Shown: positions 9,968 through 36,593, numbered from the stretch's first letter. The stretch is 64,000 nucleotides of DNA from Bacteroidales bacterium (GCA_038252165.1 JBBSAP010000002.1:51892-115891), one strand, 5' to 3'. Notes: a model not told the origin generated them from the sequence alone. Numbers and translations: made by a program.

Positions 9968-10570
9968 ATGACAATATCTGATTGGATATCAAATAACTGG
10001 ATCGAAATCTTTGGCGCCGTAACCGGCATAATCTACGTTTTTCTCGAAATCAGGCAGAAGATATGGCTCTGGCCTGTGGGAATAGTAACATCTGCAGTTT
10101 ACATAATCGTGTTTTTCACAAGCAAGTTCTACGCTGACATGAGTTTGCAGGGGTATTACCTTGTAATAAGCTTTGTGGGGTGGTACTGGTGGGTAAAGGG
10201 CACAGGGCACAGGGCACAGAGCACGGAGCAAAAAGAAACTGAAAAACTATTTGTAACAAGATTAAAATCCAAAACAGGTGTTGCCCTGGGAGTAATATTT
10301 ATATTGCTGTACTTTTTGATGTGGTTTGTACTTTCGCGCCTTACTGATTCCCCGGTTCCTGAATGGGATTCATTTATAACATCCCTTTCGATCATCGCGA
10401 CATGGATGCTTGCACGAAAGATCTATGAACACTGGTTTTTATGGATAGTTGTTAATTCTGCCTCAGTAATACTGTTTGCAACAAGAGATCTTTATCCGAC
10501 AGTAATCCTGTACCTGGTTTATCTTGCAATGTCGTTTGTCGGGCTTAAAGAGTGGAAGCGCTCCTTATAA
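9968..10570 (+). CDS. pnuT: PnuC-family inner-membrane transporter, PnuT-type (thiamine) by context
   Basis: 200 aa with about 7 TM segments. PnuC-like WxxxN/W-rich helices (NWIEIFGAVTGIIYVFL..., GWYWW). It starts 4 nt after the receptor stop, under the TPP riboswitch. Confidence 0.8.
   Translation: MTISDWISNNWIEIFGAVTGIIYVFLEIRQKIWLWPVGIVTSAVYIIVFFTSKFYADMSLQGYYLVISFVGWYWWVKGTGHRAQSTEQKETEKLFVTRLKSKTGVALGVIFILLYFLMWFVLSRLTDSPVPEWDSFITSLSIIATWMLARKIYEHWFLWIVVNSASVILFATRDLYPTVILYLVYLAMSFVGLKEWKRSL
10198..10225. repeat. Heptanucleotide tandem repeat (GGGCACA x3 plus a degenerate copy) inside the pnuT coding sequence
   Basis: gggcaca gggcaca gggcaca gagcacg, encoding the loop GTGHRAQST between TM helices. 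Confidence 0.85.
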
Positions 10571-11431
10571 AGTGTCACATTTTGAGAACAGTTTCAGGTC
10601 CCAAACATCAGCAAAAACACGTCCTGCCTGTTGTTCTATCCCATACTCCAGGACCATTTCCAGGGAACGTATATCTGGCAGGGTAAAGATGCCTTTTTCA
10701 AGCAGCTGATCCATTGCCCCGTTTCCAGCTCTTACAGGGATTAAAACGCAGCACTCCACGCCTGCATTGAAAGCAAAATCGAGTGTTCGTTTGGCCCAGA
10801 AAACACCTTCGGATTCCGAAAGGGAAGGTGGACGAAGAAGAATAAATGCTCTTGTGAATATATCATGCTCCATGAGAAAATTTACCGATCCGGTAAAATC
10901 GCTGAGCATCATCCTTTTATTGAGTTTCTTCAGAATTTCTGTATTTACAGTCTCCAGTCCGATAGCGATCTGCAGGTCGGATTTTATCATGTCCCTGAAC
11001 CTGAGGCAATTTTCATTTATTAACGAGGGATGACTTTCAACAATAACTGTTTCGAAACTGCTTATCAGAGAAGCAATTTTAGGGTAATCTTTTTCAGGTA
11101 TTGCTTTTTTATCAAAGAAACTACCGCTGTTGTAAAGTTTAAGATTTTTTGCTTCAGGCATATTATTAAGCGCCCATTCAATCTGGGCAGGGATAGCTCC
11201 TTCAGGAACTGATCTGTCTGTGGTGTTTTTCCAAAGGTCGCACATCAGGCAATGAAAAGGACATTCCCTGTTTGTCAGAAAAATGGTAGCGACATCTTCA
11301 ATAGTCCCTGAAGGAGTCCTTTCTTTTTCTATATTCCATGCATAGGGTTTCTGCGGATCGATACTATTTTTATTACCACGGCAGGATACAATCCACTTAT
11401 CGGTTACCGCAGGGTTCGTAAAATCATTCAT
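10565..11431 (-). CDS. Radical SAM protein (Elp3/TIGR01210/RaSEA-like small rSAM)
   Basis: CPFHCLMCD is a CX3CX2C cluster motif, followed by a TIM-barrel-like region (LYNSGSFFD, IGLETV). The preferred start is MNDFTNP at 11431, 2 nt after the upstream stop. The track start at 11512 would overlap the upstream gene by 89 nt. The 3' end overlaps the convergent pnuT by 6 nt. Confidence 0.8.
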   Translation of the reverse strand: MNDFTNPAVTDKWIVSCRGNKNSIDPQKPYAWNIEKERTPSGTIEDVATIFLTNRECPFHCLMCDLWKNTTDRSVPEGAIPAQIEWALNNMPEAKNLKLYNSGSFFDKKAIPEKDYPKIASLISSFETVIVESHPSLINENCLRFRDMIKSDLQIAIGLETVNTEILKKLNKRMMLSDFTGSVNFLMEHDIFTRAFILLRPPSLSESEGVFWAKRTLDFAFNAGVECCVLIPVRAGNGAMDQLLEKGIFTLPDIRSLEMVLEYGIEQQAGRVFADVWDLKLFSKCDTL

Positions 11432-12752
11432 AGCTTGAAAGAAACTCTTTCCGGTAAGCTGTTTCCTTTTCAGGGAAATGATTGCAGAAGGTATTTGCCG
11501 GTGCTGCACCATGCTGAAAACGCCTTTTGGGGAATACAGGCATGGTTATGCCTGTAACTGCTTTGACTCCCCCGGAAACGATTTGTCCCTTAAGATCATA
11601 TAACTTTTTATGATCCCAGCCTGTAATATCAATGAATGGTATACCTTCTGAGACTTCAATCACATTTGGCAATGTATAAGGGCTGAAAGATTCAAAACCA
11701 AGACTTTCACCTGTTGTATAAGTCCTCATGATTCCCCTGCTCAATCCACCTGAGTAAGTAAGAGAGTGTTTTATTGAATCGACTCCCCATCCTTCATGGT
11801 AAAGCATCAGGTTGTTGAGTACGCTTCGGATTGTAAGTTCCGGATTCTCTTCAATAGGATAGTCCTTCATATTCTCGTTGCCTCCATCGCCGTCAATCAT
11901 GAATTTCCAATCCGGATAGCGTGATCTGATGCCTTGCAAAAGTGCCATATTCATTGTAGCTGCCTGTATATCAAGAGGTTTGTAGTCTTCAACTACCCTT
12001 ACAGTATTCTTCCAGTCGAGAGATGAATAATCTGCTTCAATTACTTCAAGGAAAAATCCCAGATTAAGATCATCAAGGAACTTTTTTGCCTGGGTCAGGT
12101 CTTCTCCCCCTCCGTCAATACTAAGAGTAAAAGCCTTAAGCCGCGATGGGCTTTCACCAAGTTCCCTGAGAGCCTGGTACACCAGAAGGAAAAGAGCTCC
12201 GCTGTCAATTCCCGCTGAAAAAGTAATACCAACAGGTCCGGTGCCGGCGCGGAATTTCAACCATTTCTTTATCTCTTCCAATAAGGTTCTTATGTAAAGT
12301 TCCCCTGTTTCCGGAATATCTGATGAAGTGTATTTGTTCCTTTCAGGTTTAAAGAACCTTTCATAGACCGGATTTGGATCGGGACAGCCCAGAAGCTCTA
12401 TTTTTGTTATATAGTGTGCCGGAACCATCCGTGTATATGAAGGATGGAACTGATGATCGAGGCCCTCTTTTTTAAGATAATCAAAGATGGTGTCAATCCG
12501 TTCAGCAACAACAAGCTCAGGTCCGCCCGGCCTTTTTGCAATGAAATACCGGATTGGACGGCCGATTGATCTTGCCATCCTTATCGTTTTGCCATCAACA
12601 GAAACAAGCGAAAACTGCCCGTCTATTTTCCGTACAGCCTCCACGTTCCCCGATCTGACGGCTTCAACAGCTTCCTCATGCGTCATATTATAAATAGCAT
12701 TCTTTGCCGGATTTGTGAGATCCATCACCTTGTTTACATATTGATTAATCAT
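11424..12752 (-). CDS. Asparagine-synthetase-B-like ATP-dependent ligase lacking the glutaminase Cys (beta-lactam-synthetase/carbapenam-synthetase-like architecture)
   Basis: PP-loop-like ITFSAGIDSGALF (compare SGGLDS). The degenerate N-terminal Ntn domain (DGQFSLVSVDG...RMARSIGRPIRYFIA) has no Cys after the initiator Met. The track start at 12773 is a TTG, and the first ATG (MINQYVNK) is at 12752. Confidence 0.7.
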   Translation of the reverse strand: MINQYVNKVMDLTNPAKNAIYNMTHEEAVEAVRSGNVEAVRKIDGQFSLVSVDGKTIRMARSIGRPIRYFIAKRPGGPELVVAERIDTIFDYLKKEGLDHQFHPSYTRMVPAHYITKIELLGCPDPNPVYERFFKPERNKYTSSDIPETGELYIRTLLEEIKKWLKFRAGTGPVGITFSAGIDSGALFLLVYQALRELGESPSRLKAFTLSIDGGGEDLTQAKKFLDDLNLGFFLEVIEADYSSLDWKNTVRVVEDYKPLDIQAATMNMALLQGIRSRYPDWKFMIDGDGGNENMKDYPIEENPELTIRSVLNNLMLYHEGWGVDSIKHSLTYSGGLSRGIMRTYTTGESLGFESFSPYTLPNVIEVSEGIPFIDITGWDHKKLYDLKGQIVSGGVKAVTGITMPVFPKRRFQHGAAPANTFCNHFPEKETAYRKEFLSSYE

Positions 12753-12786
12753 ATTATATGAGTTTAAATTCAACTAACTATTAAGA

Positions 12787-12861
12787 AGTGCCTAGAGTGC
12801 CTAGAGTGAGCTAAAGTTGTAAAAACTCTAAGTACTCTAGTCACTCCAAACTTTAGTCACT
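12787..12861. repeat. 9-nt unit AGTGnCTAG: 3 direct copies followed by 3 inverted copies
   Basis: agtgcctag agtgcctag agtgagcta ... ctaagtact ctagtcact ... ttagtcact. The last inverted unit contains the stop codon (12853-12855) of the CRTAC1 gene. Confidence 0.8.
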
Positions 12862-14619
12862 TTCTTCCATGATTCCCTTCCCCTCCATTATTGTAATATA
12901 TTTATCTGCAGATACATTTTTGTAAACCTCCTTCTTCCCACCGGTCCAGCTGATCTCAAGCGTATCAATTATTTTTGCGCTGCCCAGGCCAATATGTAAC
13001 CTGGGATCATTATTGCTCAGGTAGCTTGTTGCCCATTGATTGACAAGTACCTGCCTCTTTCCGCCGGTTGTAGCGACAACTTTGGCGGCAATTGTTGAAG
13101 CCGGACCTTTACTGCCTTTCAGCGTTAAACCAAGCCAGTGATTTGCATTGCCACCGTCATTCCTGAGCAAAGAAGCCGTAGCTTTCAGGTCAACATGCGA
13201 GATTATGACATCCATATCTCCGTCATTGTCGTAATCCCATATGGCAAGACCTCTTCCTGAACGCTTTACTTTGAAATAATCCCCATACTGCTTCCCTGTG
13301 TCTTTGAAATGTCCTGTGCCGTCATTCTCAAGAAGTAATGGATATTGAAGCACAAGTTCCTCGGCTGTTCCGTTTGCAGAAACAATATCCAGATCCCCAT
13401 CGTTGTCAAAATCAAGGAAAGCTGCAGCCCAGGCACCCTTCCCGGCCAGGGGGCCCTGAACACCGCTTATTTCGGTAATATCCTCGAAGAAACCGTTGCC
13501 CTTATTGCGGTAAAGCGCTCCATAGTCAAGATCAACCACCAGAATATCAATCAGCCCGTCACCATCTACATCACCAATTGACCCATGCATTGAGCCGCTC
13601 CCTATACCATGGCTGTTGGCGGCCACGCCAATCTCAACACCTACCTCCTTATAAACGCCGTTATCATTTCTGAACATGAAATTAAGCTGATGATCGTTAG
13701 CCTGGAAAATATCTATATCTCCGTCATCATCATAATCATATACAGTGAGCCCCATGCATTTTGAATCGGGATAAAACAGGCTGTTTTTTTTGGTAACATC
13801 AACAAACTTCCCATCAGGACCCTGTTCATAGAGCATTGAAGCCTGTCCTTTATATTCAGATGGCTGGGGCATTAAGTCGGGAGTGGCCGGTGTGAAGTAG
13901 TGGGGATCGAAAGCCAGGAAATTACCAACCATTGCATCGAGCCTTCCGTCGCGGTTATGATCCCAGAATGAGACGCCAATGCTCCATTTAACAAATCCGT
14001 TTAATTTTTCCGGACCCCTAAGACCTGTATAATTTGTTATGTCGGCAAATGTTCCGTTGCCATTATTCCTGTAAAAAACATTCGGACCATAATTAAGCAG
14101 GTAGAGATCCTGGTCCCCGTCATTATCATAATCTATTGCTCCTGCTGCCATGCTCCAGTTAGTGTCATTAATACCTGCCTTCTCTGATACGTCTGTGAAT
14201 GTTCCGTTACCATTGTTTTTATAAAGCCTGTCGGGTGTATTGCTGAATTTTTTTCCCTCCGGATCAGATATGCCTTCAATATATGTTCCGTTCATCATTA
14301 ACAGATCCATCAGGTTGTCGTTGTTGTAATCAAATATTGTTATTCCTGATCCGCTGCTTTCAAGAATATTCCTGTAGGAAAGATCGCCGAATGTATATTT
14401 GAAATCAATCCCAGCTTTTACCGTAACATCGGTAAAAGTGATACTTTTCTTTTGCGCTGATGACTGAAAGGAAAAACTAAGGATAAAAAGACAGTAAAAA
14501 AGAATAACTAATGGTCTATTGATACCCCCTTTCTTATCCCGCGGGGCGGGATGTTTTAGCTCCTTCCCCCTTGGGGGAAGGTCGGGAAGGGGGTATTTAA
14601 AATTAATAATACCGGTCAT
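12853..14619 (-). CDS. CRTAC1-family protein (FG-GAP/VCBS repeats plus C-terminal ASPIC/UnbV domain)
   Basis: Repeated DYDNDGDxDL-type Ca-binding FG-GAP/VCBS blades. C-terminal UnbV block NHWLGLTLKG...GGKRQVLVNQWATSYLSNNDPRLHIGLG...LEISWTGG. ATGA overlap with the upstream gene. The first about 34 aa are encoded by a repeat element and precede the actual signal peptide (VILFYCLFILSFSFQSSAQ), so the start is uncertain. Confidence 0.85.
   Translation of the reverse strand: MTGIINFKYPLPDLPPRGKELKHPAPRDKKGGINRPLVILFYCLFILSFSFQSSAQKKSITFTDVTVKAGIDFKYTFGDLSYRNILESSGSGITIFDYNNDNLMDLLMMNGTYIEGISDPEGKKFSNTPDRLYKNNGNGTFTDVSEKAGINDTNWSMAAGAIDYDNDGDQDLYLLNYGPNVFYRNNGNGTFADITNYTGLRGPEKLNGFVKWSIGVSFWDHNRDGRLDAMVGNFLAFDPHYFTPATPDLMPQPSEYKGQASMLYEQGPDGKFVDVTKKNSLFYPDSKCMGLTVYDYDDDGDIDIFQANDHQLNFMFRNDNGVYKEVGVEIGVAANSHGIGSGSMHGSIGDVDGDGLIDILVVDLDYGALYRNKGNGFFEDITEISGVQGPLAGKGAWAAAFLDFDNDGDLDIVSANGTAEELVLQYPLLLENDGTGHFKDTGKQYGDYFKVKRSGRGLAIWDYDNDGDMDVIISHVDLKATASLLRNDGGNANHWLGLTLKGSKGPASTIAAKVVATTGGKRQVLVNQWATSYLSNNDPRLHIGLGSAKIIDTLEISWTGGKKEVYKNVSADKYITIMEGKGIMEESD
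14522..14596. repeat. G5/C5 multi-hairpin element, type A (outer stem enclosing two hairpins)
   Basis: Outer stem ataccccct (14522-14530) pairs with agggggtat (14588-14596). It encloses atcccgc-ggg-gcgggat and ccttccccc-ttg-ggggaagg. Homologous to 47215..47291. Confidence 0.85.
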
Positions 14620-18194: not shown

Positions 18195-18245
18195 GCCATC
18201 AAAATTAGCAAATAAAACTTTATAAAATCCCGGTTGGAAGTTAGG

Positions 18246-18406
18246 GATTCCTCATCCCGTCCCGAGTCCTCGGGATCGGGATTCGGAATGACACTGTTTT
18301 TATGGGAGTTTGGGGTAATCAAGGGAGATTAGCAATGGCTAATCTCCCTTGATTACCCCTTAACCAACCACCCAGGCCATGTCATTCCGAGCGTAAGCGA
18401 GGAATC
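18246..18406. repeat. Nested foldback element: GAGGAATC/GTCATTCCGA-type outer arms around a perfect 22-bp core hairpin
   Basis: Left arm is gattcctcatcccgtcccgagtcctcgggatcgggattcggaatgaca. The core is ggggtaatcaagggagattagc (18312-18333), loop aatg, then gctaatctcccttgattacccc (18338-18359). Right arm is gtcattccgagcgtaagcgaggaatc (18381-18406). The right arm overlaps the last codons and the stop of the SBP gene. Confidence 0.88.
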
Positions 18407-19515
18407 TTATTCCCCCCAGTTGTCGGCAATCCATTCATTGTTTTCATTATTTCGAATTTACCCATGCGGTTTCCTTTATCGTCAAACTGAATCAGCCCGG
18501 TTGTCCCTTTGTAACGGATCTGTTTCAGTGACTTCTGAATCATTTCACGGTCGTTTGTCCCAGCAGTTTTGATAGCTTCAATAAGAAGGTTCGTACCGTC
18601 ATAGGCGAATGATGCAGCCATACCTGGCATTTTATTATATGTTTTATGGTACTCCTTAAAGAATAAAAGGTTTTCAGGTCCTGACCAATCACCGGAAGGG
18701 ACAAAAAGAATATTGTCGTATTCCTGGATCTCCCTGGCAGTTAATTCATTTTCATCAAGGATCATTAATGATCCGTAAAGAGGGATTTTTATTTTCTTTA
18801 TTTTTAATTGATTCACTATCTCCTTTGATGCAGAAGGCTTGCAGAATAATACAATGCAATTTGCATCTGCCCTGGCGATCTTGTCAGTTAAAAGGTTAAG
18901 GTGCTGATTGTATTCATCATATGAGAAGTGAAGAGGATCTTGTTTTCCGGATGTTTTTACTGTTTTCATAAAGTTATCAGCTGCCAGTCTGGAATCATAA
19001 TCTTTTCCGGAAATCACTACTATGTTTCTGAATTTATGTTTGTTATAGATATCTTCGAACAGTGAAAGAGCCTGCTGGCGGTCATTCGGCACACAGTTAA
19101 AGAACCATGGAACAAAAGCCTGGGAGAGTGTCGGATCGCCCGACCATGCCGATATAAGAACTACTGTCGATTTTGTTGCAGCTTGTTCAACGAGGTGAGC
19201 ATTGCGTCCATCATGAAATCCAATAAGTGCCCATACTTTCTCATCAAAAATAAGGTTTACTGCCTGTTTTGATCCGGTTCCCCATGGGCCTTCCATGGAA
19301 CGAAAAACTAACTGAAACTTCTGGCCCCTCAGGCCGCCTTTTTCATTTGCATTTTTTATAGCCATTTCAGCACCATGCAAAGCTGAAGTATAGGTGCTAT
19401 CCTGAACAAGTAATCCGATTTTGATAGTCCGGGCATGATTTTCCGGATTCTGGGAAACAGCCTTGCCCGTAATGATAATTTCCAGAAGTATCAGAGTGAG
19501 GCAGACATAAAACAT
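18382..19515 (-). CDS. Exported periplasmic-binding-protein-fold solute-binding protein (Leu/Ile/Val-binding, Peripla_BP_6-like), no cognate permease nearby
   Basis: Signal peptide MFYVCLTLILLEIIITGKAVSQ, then IKIGLLV...GAEMAIKNANEKGGLRGQKFQLV, typical of type-I PBPs. The track start at 19611 reads through a repeat element, and the preferred ATG is at 19515. Confidence 0.75.
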   Translation of the reverse strand: MFYVCLTLILLEIIITGKAVSQNPENHARTIKIGLLVQDSTYTSALHGAEMAIKNANEKGGLRGQKFQLVFRSMEGPWGTGSKQAVNLIFDEKVWALIGFHDGRNAHLVEQAATKSTVVLISAWSGDPTLSQAFVPWFFNCVPNDRQQALSLFEDIYNKHKFRNIVVISGKDYDSRLAADNFMKTVKTSGKQDPLHFSYDEYNQHLNLLTDKIARADANCIVLFCKPSASKEIVNQLKIKKIKIPLYGSLMILDENELTAREIQEYDNILFVPSGDWSGPENLLFFKEYHKTYNKMPGMAASFAYDGTNLLIEAIKTAGTNDREMIQKSLKQIRYKGTTGLIQFDDKGNRMGKFEIMKTMNGLPTTGGNKIPRLRSE

Positions 19516-19518
19516 TTT

Positions 19519-19590
19519 TACCCCTAAATCCCCCAGGGGGGACTTAATTAAAAAACGATAATAAAAACCCCCCATTGGGGGGTAGGGGGT
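19519..19590. repeat. G5/C5 multi-hairpin element, type B
   Basis: tacccctaaatccccc-a-ggggggacttaattaaaaaacgataataaaaacccccc-att-ggggggtagggggt. It fills the whole DAHPS-SBP intergenic space and is homologous to 28844..28913. Confidence 0.85.
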
Positions 19591-19594
19591 GGTT

Positions 19595-20482
19595 TCAGGT
19601 AAATTGGACATTTATATTTTTATATATATCCCTCCCGACAGCCTGTGCAATTTTCTTAAGATCGGTCATCAGCCTTGTAAACTCATCCGGGCTGAGTGAC
19701 TGCTGGCCATCACATAAAGCTTCTTCTGGTTTATAATGCACCTCGATGATGAGGCCGTCGGCACCAGCTGCAATTGCAGCTTTAGCCATAGCAGGCACCA
19801 TCCACCTGTGGCCTGTTCCGTGACTGGGATCTACAAAAACAGGAAGATGGCTCAGATGTTTAAGCATGGGAACCGCGCTAAGGTCAAGAGTGTTCCGTGT
19901 AGTAGTTTCAAAAGTGCGGATACCACGCTCACACAGGATAACCTGATCATTGCCCTGGTTCAGGATATATTCAGCTGCAAGTAAGAACTCTTCTATAGTG
20001 GCCATCATACCGCGCTTCAGTAGTATCGGCTTCCGAAGCATCCCCACTTCTTTCAAAAGCGGGTAGTTATGCATATTCCTTGAGCCGACCTGTAAAATAT
20101 CAGCATATCCTGCAACAAGTTGAACAAGCCGGGTATCCATAACTTCGGTAACTATTGGCAAACCGGTTTCCTTTCTGGCTTCCGCGAGTAATTTTAATCC
20201 TTCCTCTCCGAGACCCTGGAAATTGTAAGGAGAAGAACGGGGCTTGAAAGCGCCCCCTCTCAGGATCATTCCGCCTGCTGACTTAACTGCTTTTGCTGTT
20301 TCCATCAGTTGTTCATTATTTTCCACCGAACAAGGTCCGGCAATTATCACAACCTCTGCAGACCCGATCCTTATTCCGTTCACATCCACAATCGTCGGAT
20401 CAGGTTTTGACTTTCTGTTTACCCTGACCGGGATAGAACATCCACCAATCACTGCAGGATCATTGTAATTATTTGATTCCAT
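19595..20482 (-). CDS. aroF: 3-deoxy-7-phosphoheptulonate (DAHP) synthase, type I-beta, stand-alone (no fused chorismate mutase or ferredoxin-like regulatory domain evident)
   Basis: 295 aa. [44 protein letters not shown] and [10 protein letters not shown] are hallmark I-beta DAHPS motifs (KPRS.PY.FQG distinguishes it from KDO8PS). Confidence 0.88.
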
Positions 20483-20495
20483 CTTTTTATCTCGT

Positions 20496-21818
20496 TTAAT
20501 ATTGATATCCTGTTTTAGGCTTCTTATATATGATTTCTCTTTTATCCATAGGAGCAGCAGGTGAGAATTTAAACTTACCGTTACTGACTTCAGCTATGAA
20601 AATAGGCCTTATGTTATTCCATGATGCATCTAAAATGACCTTGCCTGAAACACCCTGGTAACCCTGAAAAGTTTTCAGATCCAATAGTATATCCCGGATC
20701 AATACACGATTTAATCCAACCTTCTGAATAGCTTCAATGAGCATATTCATTCCGTCATAAGCATGTGCAGCGAACACGTCGGGTTCCATACCAAACCTTT
20801 TTTGATAACTTGCTTTAAAAGTTTTAAGCTTCGGATCATCCGAATCCGGATTATACTGACAGGTTGTTACAATACCTTCAGCCAGGTTCCCGGCGATACT
20901 CAGAAACTCCGGATTCACCATCCTGTCGCAACCATAAACAGGTTGTTGCATGCCCAGCCCGCGTATCTGCTTAAGGATAAGCGCAGATTCTTTTGCATTT
21001 CCCCACAGAACAATAGCATCGGGTGAAGTTTTCTTTATCCTTTCAAGCCTTTCCTTAAAATCTGTCTCTCCGTCACTGAATCGTTCTTCTATTATTATCG
21101 GCAATCCGATACGGGTGGCTGAACGGCTGAAATGAAGAATTCCGACTCTTCCGTAACGATTGTTGGCTCTCATTACAGCTACGCGGGAGTGTTTATCAGT
21201 TTTAAAAATACGGTCAACCAGAACATAGCCGCTTTGCCTGTCGTCGGGAATATTGCGTACCACCCATGGAATATTTGTTTCGGTAAAAGTCGGGTCAGGA
21301 TCACCGGTATTCATATTGAGGATTTCCAGTTTTAAAGTTGCCCTGATAGCTATGTGCGAATTATTATCATCGATAGTGCCCAGCCAGGCCCATACTTTTT
21401 CATCATCCATTTTTACCACCTCATTGGCTGCTGCACCCCAAAGGCCCACATCATTGTGTATCATTAACTTGTACGGAAGACCCTTATAACCTCCTTTTAT
21501 GTTGGCCTCTTCAATGGAGAGCATTGCTCCCTGTAACATCTGCTTCCCGAGAGGCTGTATAACTGAACCTTCCAATGGTCCGAGAAACCCGATTCTTACC
21601 TCTTTCAGATCTGTGGGAGGCAGTTTTTCCCGTCCCGCACCATAGAATTGTAATGGAATAAGGAAATGATATTTATATGCTTTCATATATTTATCATAGG
21701 CAACCAGCTCATCTGGTATGTTTCCGTAGTTAGCTGGTTTCTCCTGTCCGGTTAGCAGTGAAGAAGGTATAATGGAAATAAGGAGAGTAAACAGCAAAAA
21801 CCTGACATGATGCTTCAT
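20496..21818 (-). CDS. Exported Peripla_BP_6-like solute-binding protein (second copy), no cognate permease nearby
   Basis: 440 aa. Signal peptide, then [50 protein letters not shown], typical of the LivJ/amide-binding PBP fold. Confidence 0.75.
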
Positions 21819-21828
21819 ATAAGTGGAT

Positions 21829-22404: not shown

Positions 22405-22431
22405 TATTCGATTATTTATACTTATTTCTAT

Positions 22432-23634
22432 TTATTTAATCAATTCTCCACGGCTTACCCCTTTTGAGGTAGCAACCCACAGGTAATCTTCAGCAGCATC
22501 CACTCCGATAATAAAATTATGCGATATTGAAGGCGACAACGGAATTTCCTTTTTCTCTGTTCCATTGGTTATTATAGCTTTCCCGTTTTCACTGTTGTCG
22601 TCTTTTTTATATGTTACCCATGTTGTTCCATCAGTACTGCTTAAGCCATTATCGCTGCATACAAATACTTTCCGGCCTTCGGCTCGCAGGAAGTTTATGA
22701 AATTACTTGCCAGTCCGCTGTCGTGGTCAAAATAACCTTTCCAGTTTTTACCGTCATACCGGCTCATCCCGAAATAAGTTGAGATCCATAAAATATTGTC
22801 GGAATAGGCAGTTGCTGTTGTAATATCATGCACTAAACCATCATCGGGCTGAAGATCTATTTCCATAAAACCATCAGGATCTATATAATCCCTGAAATGT
22901 TTGGTTTCGTAATTGTACTCGATCATTCCTCCTCCCCAGGCTGCAATATATACTTTACCATCGCCGGCGGAGACTCCGTAGGTCCATGGCTCATGCATAG
23001 GGGCATTTTGTTCCGTGAAAATGTCCCAGGTATCGTTCCGGGTGTCATAATGGCCGGCTCCGCCGCCAGTGGCAACCCATATATCTTTCCCATCACAATA
23101 GACACAATAAACGAGGTCGTTGGGCAAGCCGCTGTTGAACTGATTAAAAGTAGTGAATTTACCTGAAGACCACCTTGTAAGCCCCCCCAGTGTTCCAATC
23201 CAGACATCTCCTGTCAGCTCGCTTACATCTACTGAGACTACTCCGTTATGAGCGAGACCATCTTCTGTGGTATAGGTACGCCATTTCTCATTTTCATAAA
23301 CGGCAAGGCCATCGTGTGTTCCGACAAGCACGCGGTCGCCATCAATCCTGACAGTAAATGCCTTATCTGAAGGAAGTCCGTCCTTAGTGGTAAAGTTGCG
23401 CCAGTTGCCGTATACAGGCATCTCCTTTGCCTCCTTTATTACTCGTGAGCTGCCTGGAAGATCTCTGTCGGAACTGTTCTTGTAGAAGCCGGAGACAGAT
23501 ATATTTTTACTCTTTTCCGGCTTTTTAGATTTGTCCGGTTTCTTTAACAATACAATTCCTGCTGCAACTATAGCTACCAAAAGGATGATAAGTGCCGGGT
23601 ATCTGATAAAATTATTACTGGACATATTTTTCAT
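22432..23634 (-). CDS. Membrane-anchored/exported protein made of two-component-regulator propeller (Reg_prop) repeats, no kinase or HTH part
   Basis: 400 aa with an N-terminal TM/signal anchor. Repeated ..DGL.sn.V.sv..d..g.vWigT.gGl..y.. units (e.g. VWIGTLGGLTRWSSGKFTTFN, IWVATGGGAGHYD). Confidence 0.7.
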   Translation of the reverse strand: MKNMSSNNFIRYPALIILLVAIVAAGIVLLKKPDKSKKPEKSKNISVSGFYKNSSDRDLPGSSRVIKEAKEMPVYGNWRNFTTKDGLPSDKAFTVRIDGDRVLVGTHDGLAVYENEKWRTYTTEDGLAHNGVVSVDVSELTGDVWIGTLGGLTRWSSGKFTTFNQFNSGLPNDLVYCVYCDGKDIWVATGGGAGHYDTRNDTWDIFTEQNAPMHEPWTYGVSAGDGKVYIAAWGGGMIEYNYETKHFRDYIDPDGFMEIDLQPDDGLVHDITTATAYSDNILWISTYFGMSRYDGKNWKGYFDHDSGLASNFINFLRAEGRKVFVCSDNGLSSTDGTTWVTYKKDDNSENGKAIITNGTEKKEIPLSPSISHNFIIGVDAAEDYLWVATSKGVSRGELIK

Positions 23635-23649
23635 TATTGAATTTCATTA

Positions 23650-25683: not shown

Positions 25684-25684
25684 A

Positions 25685-27118
25685 CTATTCAAGCTCTACT
25701 ATCTTCTCTTTAACATCAGTAATATGAACTGGGATAATAACCGGTGGTTTTTTTATTGCATCGGATACTATATTGTCGGGAACCAGTTCAGTGTTTTCGT
25801 GGCATCCTATACATCCGCGTCTTTCATTAGGACGTAACCATAACCATGAACACGGACTGCCGACAACATTGCCATCCTTATCAAGTGTCCTGATACGGAA
25901 TGGTGTGTCGGCTATAACTTTTAGCTGAAATGATCCGTCTTTTTCAACCTCAACCACTCCATATGTTGTATCAACGCCAAGCACCTCAATCTTAAGGGCT
26001 TTCCTTACGGAAGAGGAATTTTCCGGAAGAAATGGATCTCTGAAATTTATATCCTGGCACAAAAGCAAACCTGTTTTCACCTGCATATCCACTTCGCTGG
26101 GAAGTTTTTTTGGTCTTTCGTATGCTTCGACCTGGACGATATCAAGTATATGATAATCAGGATCATTATAAATTGCCTGCTCAAGCGATCTCTTTTCAGG
26201 ATCAAACTCATAAAGCGCAAAACGATCTGAATCAGATTTACGGTAGGATACAAGATATTTACCAGGACGGAGAGGGAGTACATTATGAAAATCTCCTGAG
26301 ATCCCTGATGTCAGGTCAGTTTTAGAATGCAATGGCCTTTTATAGTCTATTGAAACCAATCTGCCCGAGGTCGGGTTTTCATTATCAGATTCAACAAATA
26401 CAATCCTGCCATCTGCAGTTTCATGTGCGCTGCTTACCATGGGGCTTATCCCCGGACCCACATAGAACATATCGGCTTTGGTGCCATCAGGGCGCATAAC
26501 TATCAGCATAGGATCTCCCTGAACCGGCAATAATTGCTTTTTAACTGTAAGCAGCCTGCCATCTCTCAGGACAGTTGTTCCAAGATTGTCATCAGGGCTG
26601 AATGAGATCTGCCTGAGGTCGGAACCATCTGTATTGCATGTATAGAGGCAATGTGCTGACTTTACCGTATCATTAATTGTCAGCTTGCTGAATACAATTC
26701 GTCCACCGGGTACATAAGCCGGATCAGTACATTCTTCCCTGCCTGAAGTTATCTGCCTGTACTTAAGATTCTTCAGGTTCATTTCCCAGATCTGCCATGT
26801 GTCATTTTCCTTCTTCTGCCCTGCAAAGAGCATGAATCTTCCGTCATAAGATATTTCAGGGAAGCATGCTGAATGGAAATCTCCTGTCAGTGTTTTTTGT
26901 GAACCGGGTCTTCCTGTCTCGAGAGAACTGATCCTTGCGCCGGGTAAATAACTCCAGGATACCCCGCTTGAATAATCCGGAAGCTGCATATTTCCTGGAA
27001 CTTCCGTAAGGATCAGTGAATTATTTTCTGACGCCTTTTTACTGCACGACACAATTATCACACAAGCCAGGCTTACCAGAATAATTTCAGTTAAAATAAA
27101 TGTCCGCTTCATCATCAT
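25685..27118 (-). CDS. Lipoprotein with TolB/PD40-like beta-propeller and a C-terminal single CXXCH haem-c motif
   Basis: 477 aa. Lipobox IIVSC; PD40-like repeats (EISYDGRFMLFAGQ, YTCNTDGSDLRQIS, MRPDGTKADMF); C-terminal RRGCIGCHENTELVPDN. Confidence 0.65.
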   Translation of the reverse strand: MMMKRTFILTEIILVSLACVIIVSCSKKASENNSLILTEVPGNMQLPDYSSGVSWSYLPGARISSLETGRPGSQKTLTGDFHSACFPEISYDGRFMLFAGQKKENDTWQIWEMNLKNLKYRQITSGREECTDPAYVPGGRIVFSKLTINDTVKSAHCLYTCNTDGSDLRQISFSPDDNLGTTVLRDGRLLTVKKQLLPVQGDPMLIVMRPDGTKADMFYVGPGISPMVSSAHETADGRIVFVESDNENPTSGRLVSIDYKRPLHSKTDLTSGISGDFHNVLPLRPGKYLVSYRKSDSDRFALYEFDPEKRSLEQAIYNDPDYHILDIVQVEAYERPKKLPSEVDMQVKTGLLLCQDINFRDPFLPENSSSVRKALKIEVLGVDTTYGVVEVEKDGSFQLKVIADTPFRIRTLDKDGNVVGSPCSWLWLRPNERRGCIGCHENTELVPDNIVSDAIKKPPVIIPVHITDVKEKIVELE

Positions 27119-27133
27119 AAAGGACCAGTGGTT

Positions 27134-28804
27134 TTAGGGTTCTTTTACTTCAAGTATCTGGTTGGCTTTTACATTTTCAAGGATCTGGACTTTTCCCGAG
27201 GGCCATTTTATTTCAATCCTTTCAACAATGTCATTAGCGGCCAGTCCGAAATGTATTCTCGGATCATTCTGTGAAAGATAGCCGGTTGTGGTTTTTTTCT
27301 GGGCTATCTGTATTTTGCCTCCTGAAGTTAATTTAATCCTTGCGCCTATTCCTTCTCTGTTGCTGGTGGTACCTTTCAGATCAAGCATAAGCCAGTTATT
27401 CTGATTCCCCTTGTTGTTCCGGAGAAAAGACGCCGGGCTGTTAAGATTAACGATGAATATATCAAGATCGCCATCATTGTCATAATCGCCTATGCAGGCC
27501 CCTCTTCCCACATGTTCTTCATTGAAATACTTTCCGAGTTCCAGTGATACATCCTTGAATACCCCGTTTCCTTCATTCTCAAAAAGCTGATCTTCCTGGC
27601 CATACAGGTGTTTTAGCGCGCCGTTGGTCTTAAAAATGTCAGGATCACCGTCATTATCATAGTCCATGAAGGAAGAGGACCATCCGACAAACTGTGCGGC
27701 CTGCATCGAGATATTGGATGCCACACCTTTATCCGAGAATATTCCGTTGCCCAGATTTTCATAAAGAGAGCAATATGTATCATCTGATACAAAAAGATCG
27801 ATCAGGCCATCATTATTATAATCAGCAAAATCGACTGACATGCTTACTGTTGCTTCTCCTGCCTGGCTGAAGGCAGTCCCCGACATGGTTCCTTTATCGA
27901 CAAATCCTTTGCCCCCTTCATTGTGCCACAGATAATTCAATGTATGATCGTTTGCAACAAAAATATCAATGAATCCGTCATCGTCATAATCAGCTGCACC
28001 AACACCCATTGCCCTTCCATCCATGTCGGTTATTCCCATTTTATCTGTTACATCCTCAAATGTACCGTCGCCGTTGTTATGATAAAGGATATCTTTCTGT
28101 GCATCGTAGGCCATTGGACCCGGAAATCCGTCCGGAGCATAAAAGTATTTGTAATCAGGGTCAAAGGCAAGATAATTTCCCACATAGAGATCGAGAAAGC
28201 CGTCATTGTCATAATCGGCCCATACAGAGCCTACACTGCATTCATTTCCGCCTGAAACATTTGCACGCTTTGTAACATCAGTGAATGATCCGTTACGGTT
28301 ATTTTTCAGTAGGACATTCGGTCCGTAATTGCTAATAAAAAGATCAGGATAACCGTCATTATTAAAATCACCGGCAACAATACCCATGCTATACCATGGT
28401 CCGCTCACACCTGCTTTTTTCGTAACATCTTCAAAGGTCCCGTTGCCTTTGTTCCTGTAAAGGTGATTTCCCGGCATTTCAGATGGCTTTTCGCTTTTAC
28501 TGATACCCTCAAGCCATGTTCCGCTGCAGACATATATGTCAATATAACCATCCTGGTCAAAGTCGAGAAAAGCAGCGCCACCACCGTCTGATTGAATAAT
28601 ATTGGTCAGGTCATCATCGCCGATCGAGTGTACAAAATCAAGTCCGATCTGCTGACCGATCTCCTGGTAGAATTCATCAGTTGCAACTGCCACAGCAGTT
28701 TCAGATTGCTTTGCCGATCCTGAGGCAGTCTTGCTTCCCTGACGGCAGCCGGCAAAAATCAATATCACCAGAAGGACTATTGGAATAAATGGATTGTGTC
28801 GCAT
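27134..28804 (-). CDS. CRTAC1-family lipoprotein (FG-GAP/VCBS repeats plus ASPIC/UnbV domain)
   Basis: 556 aa. Lipobox IFAGC; DFDQDGYIDIY-type blades; UnbV block NNWLMLDLKG...REGIGARIKLTSGGKIQIAQKKTTTGYLSQNDPRIHFGLA...IEIKWPSG. Confidence 0.88.
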   Translation of the reverse strand: MRHNPFIPIVLLVILIFAGCRQGSKTASGSAKQSETAVAVATDEFYQEIGQQIGLDFVHSIGDDDLTNIIQSDGGGAAFLDFDQDGYIDIYVCSGTWLEGISKSEKPSEMPGNHLYRNKGNGTFEDVTKKAGVSGPWYSMGIVAGDFNNDGYPDLFISNYGPNVLLKNNRNGSFTDVTKRANVSGGNECSVGSVWADYDNDGFLDLYVGNYLAFDPDYKYFYAPDGFPGPMAYDAQKDILYHNNGDGTFEDVTDKMGITDMDGRAMGVGAADYDDDGFIDIFVANDHTLNYLWHNEGGKGFVDKGTMSGTAFSQAGEATVSMSVDFADYNNDGLIDLFVSDDTYCSLYENLGNGIFSDKGVASNISMQAAQFVGWSSSFMDYDNDGDPDIFKTNGALKHLYGQEDQLFENEGNGVFKDVSLELGKYFNEEHVGRGACIGDYDNDGDLDIFIVNLNSPASFLRNNKGNQNNWLMLDLKGTTSNREGIGARIKLTSGGKIQIAQKKTTTGYLSQNDPRIHFGLAANDIVERIEIKWPSGKVQILENVKANQILEVKEP

Positions 28805-28843
28805 AACAGGTTTATAAAATTAAAAGGCACAAATATATCTTTT

Positions 28844-28913
28844 TGCCCCTAGATCCCCTGAAGGGGACTTCTTAAATAAACGAATTTATACCCCCTTTAG
28901 GGGGAAGGGGGCA
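28844..28913. repeat. G5/C5 multi-hairpin element, type B (second copy)
   Basis: tgcccctagatcccc-tgaa-ggggacttcttaaataaacgaatttataccccc-ttta-gggggaagggggca. It has the same orientation and module order as 19519..19590 and lies between the histidine kinase stop and the first CRTAC1 gene. Confidence 0.85.
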
Positions 28914-29011
28914 TATCCGTTCCTAACCTGTTTACCTTAGAAATTAACCGGTTCAATTTTAGGAAATGCCTGTTAAACGGGAGTTAAAACGAGATTAAAA
29001 AAGAATTAATT

Positions 29012-30382
29012 TTATGATGTTGGGGGGAGAAGCAGTGTAATTTTAGTCCCCATGCCGATCTTTGAAGAGATATTTATCGTGCCGTTATGATTTTTAATTA
29101 TCTGATTTACAAGCGAGAGACCGATACCGGTCCCGGAATATGAAAAAGTGTTGCCGCCGCGGTAAAAAGGTTCGAAGATTTTTTTGATATCCTCCTCTGA
29201 AATACCAATACCTCGGTCCTCAAATACCACCTTTACCCATCTGTCGGTACTCCCGAACTTTATATCAACAGCATTATCGGAAGAGTATTTGCATGCATTT
29301 TCAATTATGTTGCTGATTGCTGTTTTCAGCAGGTATTCATCACCTGCCACGATGATCTGTTCCGAATCGGTCACCGAACTATCAGGTGATATATTAATAT
29401 GAAATGAAGCATTGAATTTTTTCATTTCTTCCTGTGCCTTCCAGATAATATCATCTATCCTTAGTTTAGTACTGTAACTGGAAGGCCCTTCTGCACTTGT
29501 TCTGGCAATAAGAAGCAGCCTGTTTGACAGGTCAATCAATGATTTAATGTCTTCAAGCACGGAGCCAAGTGCACTTTTGTATTCATCACCCGACCGGTCT
29601 TTCATCATCAAAACCTCTATCTGGCCGTTTATTGAAGTAAGCGGAGTTCTCAGTTCATGCGAGGCATTGGCTATGAAATTCTTCTGCATGGCAAATGATG
29701 TTTCAAGGCGCTCAAGCATCCTGTTAAATGTTCCGGCCAGCCGTCCGATCTCATCAGTTCCATTACCTTCGGGGACCCTTAAATTCAAACTGGTTATTGT
29801 TATTTCGTCGACTTTACGGACAACATCAGAAATTGGTTTCAGTGCTCTCCCCGAATAAAACCACCCTGCAATAAAAAACGAAATGAGACTTATAAAGCAT
29901 ACTATCATCAGGATAATCCGGAGTTTTTTCATGTGCATATGTCCGTCTTTATCAATAGCCGCACCAATTACTGCAAATTTGTATAATCCGGTTGTATGCG
30001 ATATACCCAGCACTTCATATGAATCCTGTTTACGAACTACCTCTTTATCTGATTCTACCTGCCCGATGATGTCATCTATTTCTTTTAATTCCCAGAATCT
30101 GTCGGATGTATATAAGGTATCCCTGTTAAAATTGAGGATCATATATTTTTCTTCAGGTAATCGGGCTGGATATCCGGTGCCGCTTCGCAGAATAAGATTT
30201 GCATTATATTCATAACTGTCGAGCACCAGCTTAGCTACGCTTACGGCTCTCGACCTGAGGAGATTGTAAAAATCATTACGACGGAAATTAGCCGAAGAAT
30301 AATAAATTGCAATTGAAGCTATTAACATTATTAATCCTCCGATGAGGAGAAACTGTAAGGTTAATCTGGTCCTGATCTGCAT
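29012..30382 (-). CDS. Sensor histidine kinase (2 TM, HAMP, HisKA, HATPase_c)
   Basis: H-box FIANASHELRTPLT, N/G boxes (NIIENACKYS, GTGIGLSLV), HAMP-like RALKPISDVVRKVDEIT. The preferred ATG (MQIRTRL) is at 30382. Confidence 0.9.
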   Translation of the reverse strand: MQIRTRLTLQFLLIGGLIMLIASIAIYYSSANFRRNDFYNLLRSRAVSVAKLVLDSYEYNANLILRSGTGYPARLPEEKYMILNFNRDTLYTSDRFWELKEIDDIIGQVESDKEVVRKQDSYEVLGISHTTGLYKFAVIGAAIDKDGHMHMKKLRIILMIVCFISLISFFIAGWFYSGRALKPISDVVRKVDEITITSLNLRVPEGNGTDEIGRLAGTFNRMLERLETSFAMQKNFIANASHELRTPLTSINGQIEVLMMKDRSGDEYKSALGSVLEDIKSLIDLSNRLLLIARTSAEGPSSYSTKLRIDDIIWKAQEEMKKFNASFHINISPDSSVTDSEQIIVAGDEYLLKTAISNIIENACKYSSDNAVDIKFGSTDRWVKVVFEDRGIGISEEDIKKIFEPFYRGGNTFSYSGTGIGLSLVNQIIKNHNGTINISSKIGMGTKITLLLPPTS

Positions 30383-30389
30383 CCTTCTC

Positions 30390-31070
30390 TTAACTTTGAT
30401 CTCCGAAAATATAGCCGAATCCAACCTTTGTATGGATCAGCTTTTTGTCAAATCCTTTATCAATCTTCTTTCGCAGGAAGTTGACATAAACATCCACTAC
30501 GTTAGTGCTGAAGCCAAAACTGGAATCCCACACCTTCTCGGCAATATCATTTCTTGAAAGGACCCTGCCGGTATTTCTCATAAAATATTCAAGAAGCGAA
30601 AACTCTTTAGCTGTAAGGTCGATAAATGAATTTCCCCTTCGTGCCGCCTTCCTGTCAAGATCAAGTTCCAGATCAGCAATAAAAAGCTTGTTAGCCGTTT
30701 CTCGCGGATGGTCAGAGCTCATAAGCAGAACCTTAACCCTTGCGAGCAATTCCCTGAATTCAAATGGTTTTACAAGGTAATCATTTGTACCGGCTTCGAA
30801 TCCGGCAAGCTTATCTTCAGTGGTTCCAAGGGCAGTAAGCATGAGAACAGGGATCCCGGGGAAGGTCATCTTGAACTTTTTACACAACTCCAGGCCGCCT
30901 GTCCCGGGAATTACAATATCAAGTATGAAAAGATCATATTTATACTGACGTGCAAGTTTTTCTGCAAACATGCTGTCGTATGCAATATCGGCCTCATACT
31001 GACTCTCTTCAAGGCCTTTTTTTATAAATGATGCTACCTTGGACTCATCCTCGACGATCAGGATTTTCAT
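30390..31070 (-). CDS. OmpR/PhoB-family response regulator
   Basis: 226 aa. Receiver domain (MKILIVEDE...DLFILDIVIPG...KPF) plus a winged-helix output (LTAKEFSLLEYFMRN...VGFGYIF). Confidence 0.93.
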   Translation of the reverse strand: MKILIVEDESKVASFIKKGLEESQYEADIAYDSMFAEKLARQYKYDLFILDIVIPGTGGLELCKKFKMTFPGIPVLMLTALGTTEDKLAGFEAGTNDYLVKPFEFRELLARVKVLLMSSDHPRETANKLFIADLELDLDRKAARRGNSFIDLTAKEFSLLEYFMRNTGRVLSRNDIAEKVWDSSFGFSTNVVDVYVNFLRKKIDKGFDKKLIHTKVGFGYIFGDQS

Positions 31071-34750: not shown

Positions 34751-34769
34751 TTGTTAAAAATGATGTAAT

Positions 34770-36515: not shown

Positions 36516-36534
36516 AAATCTTTCTTTATCCATT

Positions 36535-36570
36535 AATAAGGACATGCCAAGGCATGTCCTTATTTTTTAT
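36535..36570 (+). terminator. Rho-independent terminator/attenuator hairpin after SusD
   Basis: aataaggacatgcc-aa-ggcatgtccttatt followed by ttttat. A 14-bp perfect stem 20 nt after the stop, and only about 24 nt before the next ATG. Confidence 0.7.
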
Positions 36571-36593
36571 ATTCGCATTCATAATAGTTGTCT

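Follow-up and report, generated by a model that had tools for sequence, protein, structure and literature searches.

What is the task of fourteen closely packed genes that place haem proteins and propellers of the CRTAC1 family beside orphan binding proteins and four cytoplasmic enzymes? The question is raised by positions 10565-31070 of a 64,000-nucleotide stretch of Bacteroidales DNA (GCA_038252165.1, JBBSAP010000002.1:51892-115891), which is called the window throughout and which had been interpreted once before from its letters alone (the sequence-only reading). We found that two haem proteins of this array, here named alpha and beta-gamma, are by their sequences distant homologues of the alpha subunit of hydrazine synthase (HZS) and of its beta-gamma fusion. 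We are highly confident that the locus is a typical Bacteroidota member of the conserved 'clade III' HZS-like cluster recently described by Hagglund et al. (Genome Biol Evol, December 2025; PMC12758564). How the cluster works can be answered more tentatively: its products may form an oxidoreductase system of the cell envelope, with a chemistry other than hydrazine synthesis.

Haem proteins related to hydrazine synthase

Among the NCBIfam models, hydrazine_alpha, _beta, _gamma and _BC are the top matches of the two haem proteins. The alpha protein carries the HZS_alpha middle domain (Pfam PF18582, 67 bits, cut-off 26.6), matches NF052339 with 107 bits (cut-off 800) and has HZS alpha as its sole significant relative in the PDB (5c2v_A, 4e-22). 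For beta-gamma, the model of the fused beta-gamma subunit is the best match (3e-72; NF052342, 244 bits, cut-off 1250), and the best PDB relatives are HZS beta (5c2v_B, 1.1e-49) and HZS gamma (5c2v_C, 9.6e-18), far ahead of the weak partial matches to CCP (1iqc, 1.5e-4) and MbnH (6e1c, 3.3e-4). The sequence-only reading had labelled the two products a PD40 propeller with CXXCH and a YVTN tri-haem CCP/MauG protein, and had missed their homology to HZS.

Both haem subunits share their domain architecture with HZS of anammox bacteria (Kuenenia stuttgartiensis, PDB 5C2V; fused beta-gamma in Scalindua): alpha combines a propeller with a middle domain that bears haem, and in beta-gamma a seven-bladed propeller is followed by a di-haem domain. 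The window proteins depart from this model in several ways. They score five to eight times below the equivalog cut-offs, the gene order is reversed, and beta-gamma has gained an N-terminal haem and a membrane anchor. The cluster moreover resides in non-anammox bacteria, some of them aerobic, and includes CRTAC1, binding-protein and AsnB-like/radical SAM partners. The haem motifs themselves are constant within the family, with a single CXXCH in alpha (C436; 72/72 orthologues) and three in beta-gamma (C49, C450 and C575; 67/67 orthologues). All proteins of the conserved core possess a lipobox, a signal peptide or a membrane anchor.

The residues on which hydrazine synthesis depends are missing from this architecture. 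In the alignment to 5c2v_C, for which HZS gamma numbering was mapped from the chain sequence, the PPFRH segment with gamma-His144 is matched by PPYKW, so that Trp replaces His (in 68/68 sequences), and the DRVCG segment with gamma-Cys165 falls into a gap of the beta-gamma query. The alpha protein has no Tyr in the 37 residues following its CXXCH (CIGCH) and no second haem motif, and therefore lacks a counterpart of alpha-Tyr591 and of haem alpha-II.

The C-terminal 250 residues of beta-gamma resemble di-haem CCP, MauG and MbnH instead in having two CXXCH motifs, an inter-haem Trp (W489) and a PY(L/F)HDG signature, and Pfam CCP_MauG matches part of this region (38.5 bits, cut-off 25.6). In the alignment, which takes in the window, Trp489 and His637 are unchanged in 68/68 sequences. 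The domain differs from these di-haem enzymes in its fusion to a propeller and an additional haem, and in its pairing with an alpha subunit. It also appears to differ at the second haem: EQHG in the window aligns with DMHG of HZS gamma and places an invariant His at the position aligned with the distal ligand, which is Met in CCP and Tyr in MauG.

A conserved core with optional genes

We scanned one genome per GTDB species with an alignment of alpha and found at least 582 stretches that encode a relative; the best 80 of these at least 582 loci, mostly metagenome-assembled genomes (MAGs) labelled Bacteroidales or Rikenellaceae, were analysed. Others belong to Prolixibacteraceae, Draconibacterium, Flavobacteriaceae, Lutibacter, Cytophagales and Rhodothermales. 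Open reading frames (ORFs) were called in all loci and compared with the window proteins; the genome flanks spanned 10 kb, and the AsnB-like and radical SAM genes mostly lie beyond them. Downstream genes were counted in the 49 loci with at least 8.5 kb downstream of alpha and upstream genes in the 50 loci with at least 6 kb upstream (Table 1).

The constant parts of the cluster are, in order, CRTAC1a, alpha, beta-gamma, the propeller protein p400, the periplasmic binding proteins SBP1 and SBP2, and a giant TPR-CRTAC1 lipoprotein. A module of CRTAC1b, AsnB-like and RaSEA-like radical SAM genes is lastingly joined to them. All loci, including those whose alpha identity is as low as 35%, have the core genes in the same order. 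The sequence-only reading had allowed that adjacency might be accidental if gene order were not conserved in related genomes; with the array order kept across about 50 species-level genomes, this is decisively refuted. Some of the loci lack the DAHP synthase, some the Rid-fold protein and some the two-component system, all of which are therefore accessory, not core; the same optional status applies to the SusC/SusD/CRTAC1 array. All four combinations of Rid and DAHP synthase presence and absence occur (38, 5, 3 and 3 loci). Response regulator and kinase always occur together. They lie upstream in only 31 of the 50 loci, and the two-component control proposed earlier is to that extent not supported.

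The single 'missing' SBP2 in our count is explained by split ORFs in long-read MAGs. Such splits, into two to four ORFs per cluster gene, were seen in L026, L040 and L043 and are probably assembly frameshift errors, not pseudogenes. A complete Bacteroidota-type cluster with SusC/SusD was also present in a MAG labelled Chloroflexota (L074), with 61-77% identity to most window proteins; the contig probably stems from Bacteroidota and was binned wrongly, and it should not be read as showing that Chloroflexota possess the cluster. Clustering of the unassigned ORFs across the 80 loci yielded no further recurrent partner. The sole recurrent family, found in nine loci, may, to judge from its sequence, be a Gfo/Idh/MocA-type oxidoreductase. 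Among cultured bacteria, Maribacter polysiphoniae DSM 23514 (L051) shows the cluster from CRTAC1a to the TPR-CRTAC1 giant.

Hagglund et al. (PMC12758564) describe HZS homologues outside anammox bacteria in four clades. Their clade III is marked by a CRTAC1/FG-GAP gene that lies upstream of alpha instead of separating it from beta-gamma, by a short alpha without haem alpha-II and without the C-terminal part, by a beta-gamma that has a single additional haem motif and bears Trp where HZS has gamma-His144, and by two genes for substrate-binding proteins downstream. Clades I-III share a two-residue gap at the alpha-Tyr591 position and the company of CRTAC1 with alpha and beta-gamma. The window agrees on every published feature, including an alpha gene immediately upstream of the fused beta-gamma gene (gap 1 nt), and nothing contradicts its membership. 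Maribacter, Prolixibacteraceae and Bacteroidales VadinHA17 stand in the hit tables of that paper, which assigns the clusters no function and likewise concludes against true hydrazine synthesis. It does not mention the Reg_prop propeller, the TPR-CRTAC1 giant, the module of CRTAC1b, AsnB-like and radical SAM genes, the DAHP synthase, Rid, the two-component system or the SusC/D array; the terms 'DAHP' and 'radical SAM' occur 0 times in the main text. The earlier description of the locus as an undescribed system thus holds for a conserved unit without assigned function, and no longer for its core of CRTAC1, alpha, beta-gamma and two binding proteins, which was already in PMC12758564.

Table 1. 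Genes and intergenic elements of the cluster in the window, with their occurrence among the loci analysed
Feature	Position	Strand	Domains, matches or composition	Occurrence
OmpR-type response regulator (RR), optional module	30390..31070	-	Response_reg + Trans_reg_C	RR + HK upstream, always together: 31/50
Sensor histidine kinase (HK)	29012..30382	-	HAMP, HisKA, HATPase_c	see RR
Gap between HK and CRTAC1a	28805..29011	-	G/C hairpin (28887-28915), 24-nt motif (28846-28869), TAnnTTTG-like box	
CRTAC1a lipoprotein	27134..28804	-	FG-GAP/VCBS propeller + UnbV_ASPIC	directly upstream of alpha: 50/50
Alpha, HZS-alpha-like single-haem propeller protein, probably a lipoprotein, 477 aa	25685..27118	-	PF18582 HZS_alpha	
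Beta-gamma, HZS beta-gamma-like fusion, 677 aa	23650..25683	-	hydrophobic N-terminus + extra haem, 7-bladed YVTN propeller, di-haem CCP/MauG-like domain	49/49
p400, membrane-anchored Reg_prop beta-propeller, 400 aa	22432..23634	-	weak Reg_prop match	49/49
Rid/YjgF-fold protein, optional, 191 aa	21829..22404	-	80-aa N-terminal extension, catalytic Arg absent	43/49
SBP1, orphan LivJ-type periplasmic binding protein 1	20496..21818	-	Peripla_BP_6 7.9e-43	49/49
Stand-alone type I-beta DAHP synthase, optional	19595..20482	-	NF006421, TIGR01361	41/49
Gap between DAHP synthase and SBP2	19516..19594	-	terminator-like hairpin with T run, second copy of 24-nt motif (19521-19544)	
SBP2, orphan LivJ-type periplasmic binding protein 2	18382..19515	-	Peripla_BP_6 4.8e-32	48/49
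Gap between SBP2 and TPR-CRTAC1 giant	18195..18381	-	strongly structured, 22-nt perfect palindrome (18312-18359)	
Giant TPR + CRTAC1-type lipoprotein, 1192 aa	14616..18194	-	Pfam; lipobox FPGC	48/49
CRTAC1b, second CRTAC1-family protein	12853..14619	-	Pfam	
AsnB-like PP-loop enzyme, 442 aa	11424..12752	-	Asn_synthase 2.6e-8	
RaSEA-like (TIGR01210-type) radical SAM enzyme (rSAM), 288 aa	10565..11431	-	TIGR01210	
Divergent array of SusC, SusD, CRTAC1 (1102 aa), Fib_succ_major and CRTAC1 (1106 aa)	31625..44083	+	loosely associated module	SusC upstream: 21/50

The gene content given by the sequence-only reading proved accurate. ORF calling returned the same 14 consecutive minus-strand genes, and the family assignments of all array genes were reproduced with Pfam and NCBIfam. 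The composition of four cytoplasmic enzymes and at least eight exported proteins was likewise borne out, as were the orphan state of the binding proteins and the absence of carbohydrate-active enzymes (CAZymes), nonribosomal peptide synthetases and polyketide synthases from the array. No ABC permease or ATPase was found in the entire 64-kb window, nor in the gene tables of L001 and L082-L084. Start codons were chosen to agree with homologues and signal peptides (HK, ATG 30382; beta-gamma, ATG 25683; SBP2, M33 at ATG 19515; AsnB-like, ATG 12752; rSAM, ATG 11431). With these starts, the junctions from RR to the TPR giant measure, in order, 7, 207, 15, 1, 15, 27, 10, 13, 79 and 187 nt, followed by an ATGA overlap, 100 nt and an 8-nt overlap of the AsnB-like and rSAM genes. 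The earlier junction list agrees except for its last entry: the '2 nt at 11424-11431' is an ATG that starts 2 nt before the stop codon, i.e. the 8-nt overlap. The cluster is probably co-transcribed for the most part.

Among the remaining core proteins, CRTAC1a is related to human CRTAC1 (9etn, 2.4e-24) and has the lipobox FAGC, and p400, which has an N-terminal hydrophobic anchor, has a propeller akin to the domain with which hybrid two-component systems of Bacteroides sense ligands in the periplasm (4a2l, 1.4e-20; 3v9f, 3.8e-13). Signal peptides are present in SBP1 and, from M33, in SBP2. The best solved relatives of SBP1 are amino-acid-binding proteins of the LivJ type (4gnr and 3td9, about 1e-23); some of its weaker PDB matches we take to be aromatic-acid binding proteins, which the deposited names do not say. 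The C-terminal 447 residues of the TPR-CRTAC1 giant have no domain match. As for the accessory proteins, the closest NCBIfam models of the RR are CopR/CusR/HprR-like, all below their cut-offs. The DAHP synthase is well above threshold (NF006421, 457 bits, cut-off 335; TIGR01361, 404 bits, cut-off 268). The Rid-fold protein has PAS where RidA has PAR (Arg105 of E. coli RidA), and this catalytic Arg is found in 0/51 orthologues, 44 of which have Ser and 6 Ala.

The larger gaps contain hairpins, in keeping with the earlier claim that they are filled by structured repeats; a repeat is common to two of them only. This is the 24-nt motif at 19521-19544 and 28846-28869, for which 0 matches are expected by chance. 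RNA-folding z-scores were -9.1 for 18232-18381, -3.8 for 12753-12852, -2.2 for 19516-19594 and -1.1 for 28836-28960. The most structured segment, 18232-18381, folds at -78 kcal/mol and lies between SBP2 and the TPR-CRTAC1 giant, in a gap whose length is not conserved (276 nt in L082, 25 nt in L083). The gap at 28805-29011 probably separates the regulator unit from the structural operon. A scan for sigma-70 promoters performed no better than on shuffled sequences (51 found, 46.5 expected) and was not used, and Rfam had no match in the 64 kb.

The 24-nt motif forms part of a bipartite element of about 70 nt that occurs twice in the 64 kb, at 19521-19590 and 28846-28915, both on the minus strand and both in cluster gaps. 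It consists of a CCCCC...GGGGG hairpin, an AT-rich spacer and then AAGTCCCC-N-GGGGATYTAGGGG. The element recurs in four related genomes (L002, L043, L046 and L050) at the same or other cluster junctions: the 28805-29011 junction carries it in L043 and L046, and the 19516-19594 junction in L002 and L050. Its role could be regulatory, or it could represent a small mobile repeat.

The divergent array upstream of the cluster resembles the SusC/SusD loci of Bacteroidota that carry CRTAC1/UnbV_ASPIC proteins and no CAZymes; to our knowledge, such loci have not been characterised. In the window, SusC/SusD and two CRTAC1 proteins of about 1100 aa are divergent from the haem, binding-protein and rSAM genes, which are part of no described polysaccharide utilization locus. 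A 235-aa ORF after the second large CRTAC1 gene (44739-45446) contains only the CarboxypepD_reg and Plug domains of a TonB-dependent, SusC-type receptor and looks like a truncated receptor gene. At the other end of the window, 482-4386 holds tandem full-length genes for Kup-type K+ transporters of 652 and 648 aa.

The AsnB-like/radical SAM pair and CRTAC1 proteins

Of all products of the locus, the AsnB-like protein is conserved best, with nearly all matches being exactly 442 aa long and at least 79% identical. It has a PP-loop of the form SAGIDS (family motif SGGxDS), in which S179, G181, D183 and S184 are invariant in 20 sequences, and matches Pfam Asn_synthase with 34 bits (cut-off 21). Its N-terminus, MINQYV, lacks the Cys2 glutaminase nucleophile, and TIGR01536 is matched with 31 bits (cut-off 267) from profile position 114 onwards. 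The rSAM enzyme has a CX3CX2C motif (CPFHCLMC; C84, C88 and C91), and its nearest family model is that of RaSEA, which it matches below the cut-off (TIGR01210, 96.6 bits, 1.5e-27, cut-off 212). Sequence searches of the PDB gave no match for either protein even at E = 10, nor did a profile search for the AsnB-like protein. The AlphaFold2 model of the latter was unusable (mean pLDDT 44). The rSAM model reached a pLDDT of 88.5, and Foldseek against the PDB returned only generic barrels (Elp3, PFL-AE; TM about 0.5), which therefore give no clue to the substrate.

The resemblance to the ArcS-RaSEA couple extends to a compact single-domain rSAM enzyme with CX3CX2C and to its obligate pairing with a second enzyme gene. 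The partner in the window is an AsnB-like PP-loop enzyme and not ArcS, the host is bacterial, and CRTAC1 genes are the neighbours. ArcS and tRNA-guanine transglycosylase domains were not found among the annotated ORFs of the window, and neither a tRNA-guanine transglycosylase nor a preQ0 gene in the array or its flanks. None of the loci examined has an ArcS gene next to the pair; no search was aimed at the deazaguanine pathway.

The AsnB-like and rSAM genes accompany CRTAC1-family genes in several arrangements. In three long contigs retrieved through rSAM homologues (L082-L084), they follow TPR-CRTAC1 and CRTAC1b as in the window, and many metagenome loci likewise have the pair at the cluster end. 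In eight loci (L011, L054, L056, L057, L062, L070, L071 and L081) the pair lies directly upstream of CRTAC1a, and it stands at the cluster start in L133 and L134 as well; in L073 only the rSAM gene is visible, at the contig edge. This front placement amounts to a circular permutation of the cluster. A CRTAC1-family gene also precedes the front-placed pair in the four loci with enough upstream sequence, namely CRTAC1b in L056 and L081 and the 1100-aa type in L011 and L057.

A further 80 loci came from a metagenome scan for which the AsnB-like protein served as anchor. The rSAM gene directly follows in 41/41 of those with at least 64% AsnB-like identity, and in 21/28 loci of this class a CRTAC1-family ORF lies directly upstream of the pair. 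In six of the remaining seven the pair is divergent from SusC (L146 has no visible neighbour), and in L124, L125 and L127 the divergent SusC-SusD-CRTAC1 set is complete. Among more divergent loci, the rSAM gene is followed by CRTAC1b in L159, and CRTAC1-like genes precede the pair in L158 and L160. The pair thus keeps a CRTAC1-family neighbour through at least four arrangements across Bacteroidales, Prolixibacteraceae, Cytophagales and divergent metagenome contigs, which argues for a functional link and not for inherited synteny.

Several further observations concern the surroundings of the pair. In L124-L128, and in full in L124 and L127, three more genes follow it; in L127 they encode a Peptidase_S58 (DmpA-like), a URO-D-like and a creatininase-family protein, and the ORFs of L124 have the same sizes. 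This third arrangement offers a different set of possible pathway partners. In the window, genes for a PnuC-type transporter (9968-10570) and a TonB-dependent receptor (7534-9963) converge on the rSAM gene, a neighbourhood kept in L082, L085, L089, L100, L112, L130 and L163. PnuC has 200 aa here and 236 aa in L082; since PnuC and rSAM are both shorter, the convergent junction has lost sequence on both sides. The idea that the pair matures a ribosomally synthesised and post-translationally modified peptide was dropped: its flanking gaps vary from overlap to about 470 nt and leave no room for a conserved short ORF. We found no relevant literature on CRTAC1/UnbV, TIGR01210 or AsnB-plus-rSAM clusters.

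Proposed working and alternative explanations

Taken as a whole, identity and working together, the following explanation is the best we can offer, and we regard it as evenly balanced between right and wrong; its mechanistic outline is tentative and in our judgement rather more apt to be wrong than right. By analogy with HZS, alpha and beta-gamma may form a membrane-anchored periplasmic oxidoreductase with four haems. The gamma part, which is CCP/MauG-like, would house one catalytic haem and alpha a second haem that is open, and the extra haem after the N-terminal hydrophobic segment of beta-gamma could link the complex to electron carriers of the membrane. The chemistry would be peroxidase- or MauG-like and not hydrazine synthesis; we propose this because the inter-haem Trp is invariant. 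The CRTAC1 propellers may serve as structural or substrate-presenting partners, and the two binding proteins could take up a small ligand resembling an amino acid or an amide, to serve the enzyme and not import. In the cytoplasm, the AsnB-like/rSAM couple might supply or mature something that the CRTAC1-containing assemblies need.

Several points weigh against this explanation. The complex of alpha, beta-gamma and CRTAC1 is suggested by gene order and by the HZS analogy; its substrate is a guess, and the roles given to the binding proteins, p400 and the CRTAC1 proteins are conjectural. The most divergent AsnB-like genes (58-63% identity), mostly from unidentified lineages, lie among housekeeping genes: rSAM follows in 8/16 of these loci and CRTAC1 is nearby in 4/16. 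L153, for example, has a pseudouridine synthase and complex I genes as neighbours, and L155 has MetH, LigA and DUF1501. Divergent AsnB-like genes being so often without CRTAC1, the pair could have a self-contained function. Finally, the rSAM protein of the window has 288 aa, compared with 312-327 aa in the rest of its 90% cluster and in all 22 aligned homologues. At the 3' end of the gene (window 10565-10575), an in-frame deletion of 84 nt relative to L082 and the aligned homologues removes its last 28 residues and with them three of the four conserved C-terminal cysteines (CxxC...CxC). An independent Logan assembly of SRR19962010 (L085) yields the same 288-aa product, which is therefore a real allele, and the rSAM module may be impaired in this particular window.

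In a bolder form, the cluster would encode an envelope enzyme system of hundreds of Bacteroidota species that is a sister of HZS and carries out a new two-site, channelled transformation of a nitrogen compound, such as a hydroxylamine or amine reaction at an organic substrate, dependent on a product or modification supplied by the CRTAC1-tied couple of AsnB-like and RaSEA-like rSAM enzymes. We consider this unlikely, though worth stating.

Three other explanations seem less likely still. The cluster might be a composite of unrelated units: an envelope unit, an adjacent AsnB-like/rSAM pair that serves, for instance, RNA or cofactor modification, and a housekeeping DAHP synthase. The divergent AsnB-like genes amid housekeeping genes (L153, L155), the affinity of rSAM to the family of the archaeosine tRNA enzyme RaSEA, and the hairpins and terminator-like sites that interrupt the array would all fit. 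The CRTAC1 neighbour that the pair keeps in its different arrangements does not, nor do the junctions inside the array, which are 1-27 nt or overlapping, and the lack of ArcS beside the pair in the loci examined. We therefore hold a mere assemblage to be improbable.

Equally doubtful is a system that builds a protein-derived cofactor in the manner of MauG or quinohaemoprotein amine dehydrogenase (QHNDH). Here, the di-haem domain would oxidise a Trp, Tyr or Cys of a partner (alpha or CRTAC1) to a quinone- or kynurenine-type cofactor, the rSAM enzyme would act as maturase, and the resulting enzyme would oxidise amines or amino acids that the binding proteins supply. A seven-bladed propeller subunit is found together with a di-haem or rSAM maturase in methylamine dehydrogenase and QHNDH. 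The invariant Trp at the CCP/MauG position, weak matches of beta-gamma to models of MbnH, MauG and the QHNDH beta subunit, and the LivJ type of the binding proteins are consistent with such a system. Against it, no gene for a small cofactor-bearing subunit is present, and no conserved short ORF fits the gaps. From the alignment, the second haem appears to be His-ligated as in HZS gamma and not Tyr-ligated as in MauG, and HZS is much closer than MauG or MbnH (1e-49 and 1e-17 compared with 3e-4).

As one speculative possibility, the sequence-only reading had put forward an amide-modified small molecule from the shikimate branch. Worked out further, it would derive from shikimate or chorismate: DAHP synthase would increase the supply of precursor, the Rid/chorismatase-like protein would convert chorismate, the AsnB-like enzyme would amidate the product and rSAM tailor it, and in the periplasm the binding proteins would bind it and the haem proteins redox-cycle it. 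A DAHP synthase that stands alone, apparently unregulated, within a non-aromatic cluster is a typical sign of a pathway fed by shikimate, and the enzyme of the window has neither a chorismate-mutase nor a regulatory domain. Rid, furthermore, weakly matches the FkbO/Hyg5 chorismatase model, and it occurs together with DAHP synthase in 38/49 loci. The weaker SBP1 matches that we take to be aromatic-acid binding proteins would also fit. The comparison of genomes weakens this proposal. DAHP synthase is missing from 8/49 loci and Rid from 6/49, in every combination, and neither can therefore be an essential step; the AsnB-like/rSAM pair, too, is found without DAHP synthase or Rid in L057, L081 and L124-L127. 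Rid lacks the RidA Arg and scores far below the chorismatase threshold (TIGR04444, 28 bits, cut-off 325), matching only the last domain of a tandem YjgF-like architecture. With no chorismate-using enzyme and no exporter in the cluster, we consider such a product as improbable as the two preceding explanations.

True hydrazine synthesis, or another anammox-like formation of N-N bonds in Bacteroidota, could be suspected from HZS subunits being the closest characterised relatives of both haem proteins, but the absence of the HZS catalytic residues, the scores far below the cut-offs, the lack of an HAO/HDH-like multi-haem gene among those window ORFs, 150 aa or longer, that were annotated, and the occurrence of the cluster in Maribacter, which is aerobic, lead us to reject it with near certainty.

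The explanation we prefer, an HZS-like envelope oxidoreductase with CRTAC1 and binding-protein partners, bears on an enzyme that was long believed to have no relatives and whose homologues were reported only in 2025. Our results show that the HZS homologues of Bacteroidota sit in a much larger and strictly conserved gene set than has been described, with a propeller of the sensor type, three proteins of the CRTAC1 family, two orphan binding proteins and the AsnB-like/rSAM couple as additions. What this study contributes is the complete set of conserved genes, a division of the cluster into core and accessory members, the link of the AsnB-like/rSAM couple to CRTAC1 proteins, and a cultured strain that has the cluster from CRTAC1a to the TPR-CRTAC1 giant. 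This strain, Maribacter polysiphoniae DSM 23514, makes the role of HZS-like enzymes outside anammox bacteria approachable by genetics and biochemistry. The linkage of the AsnB-like/rSAM couple, finally, is a first functional lead for the CRTAC1-family proteins, which are abundant in bacteria and have so far been unexplained.

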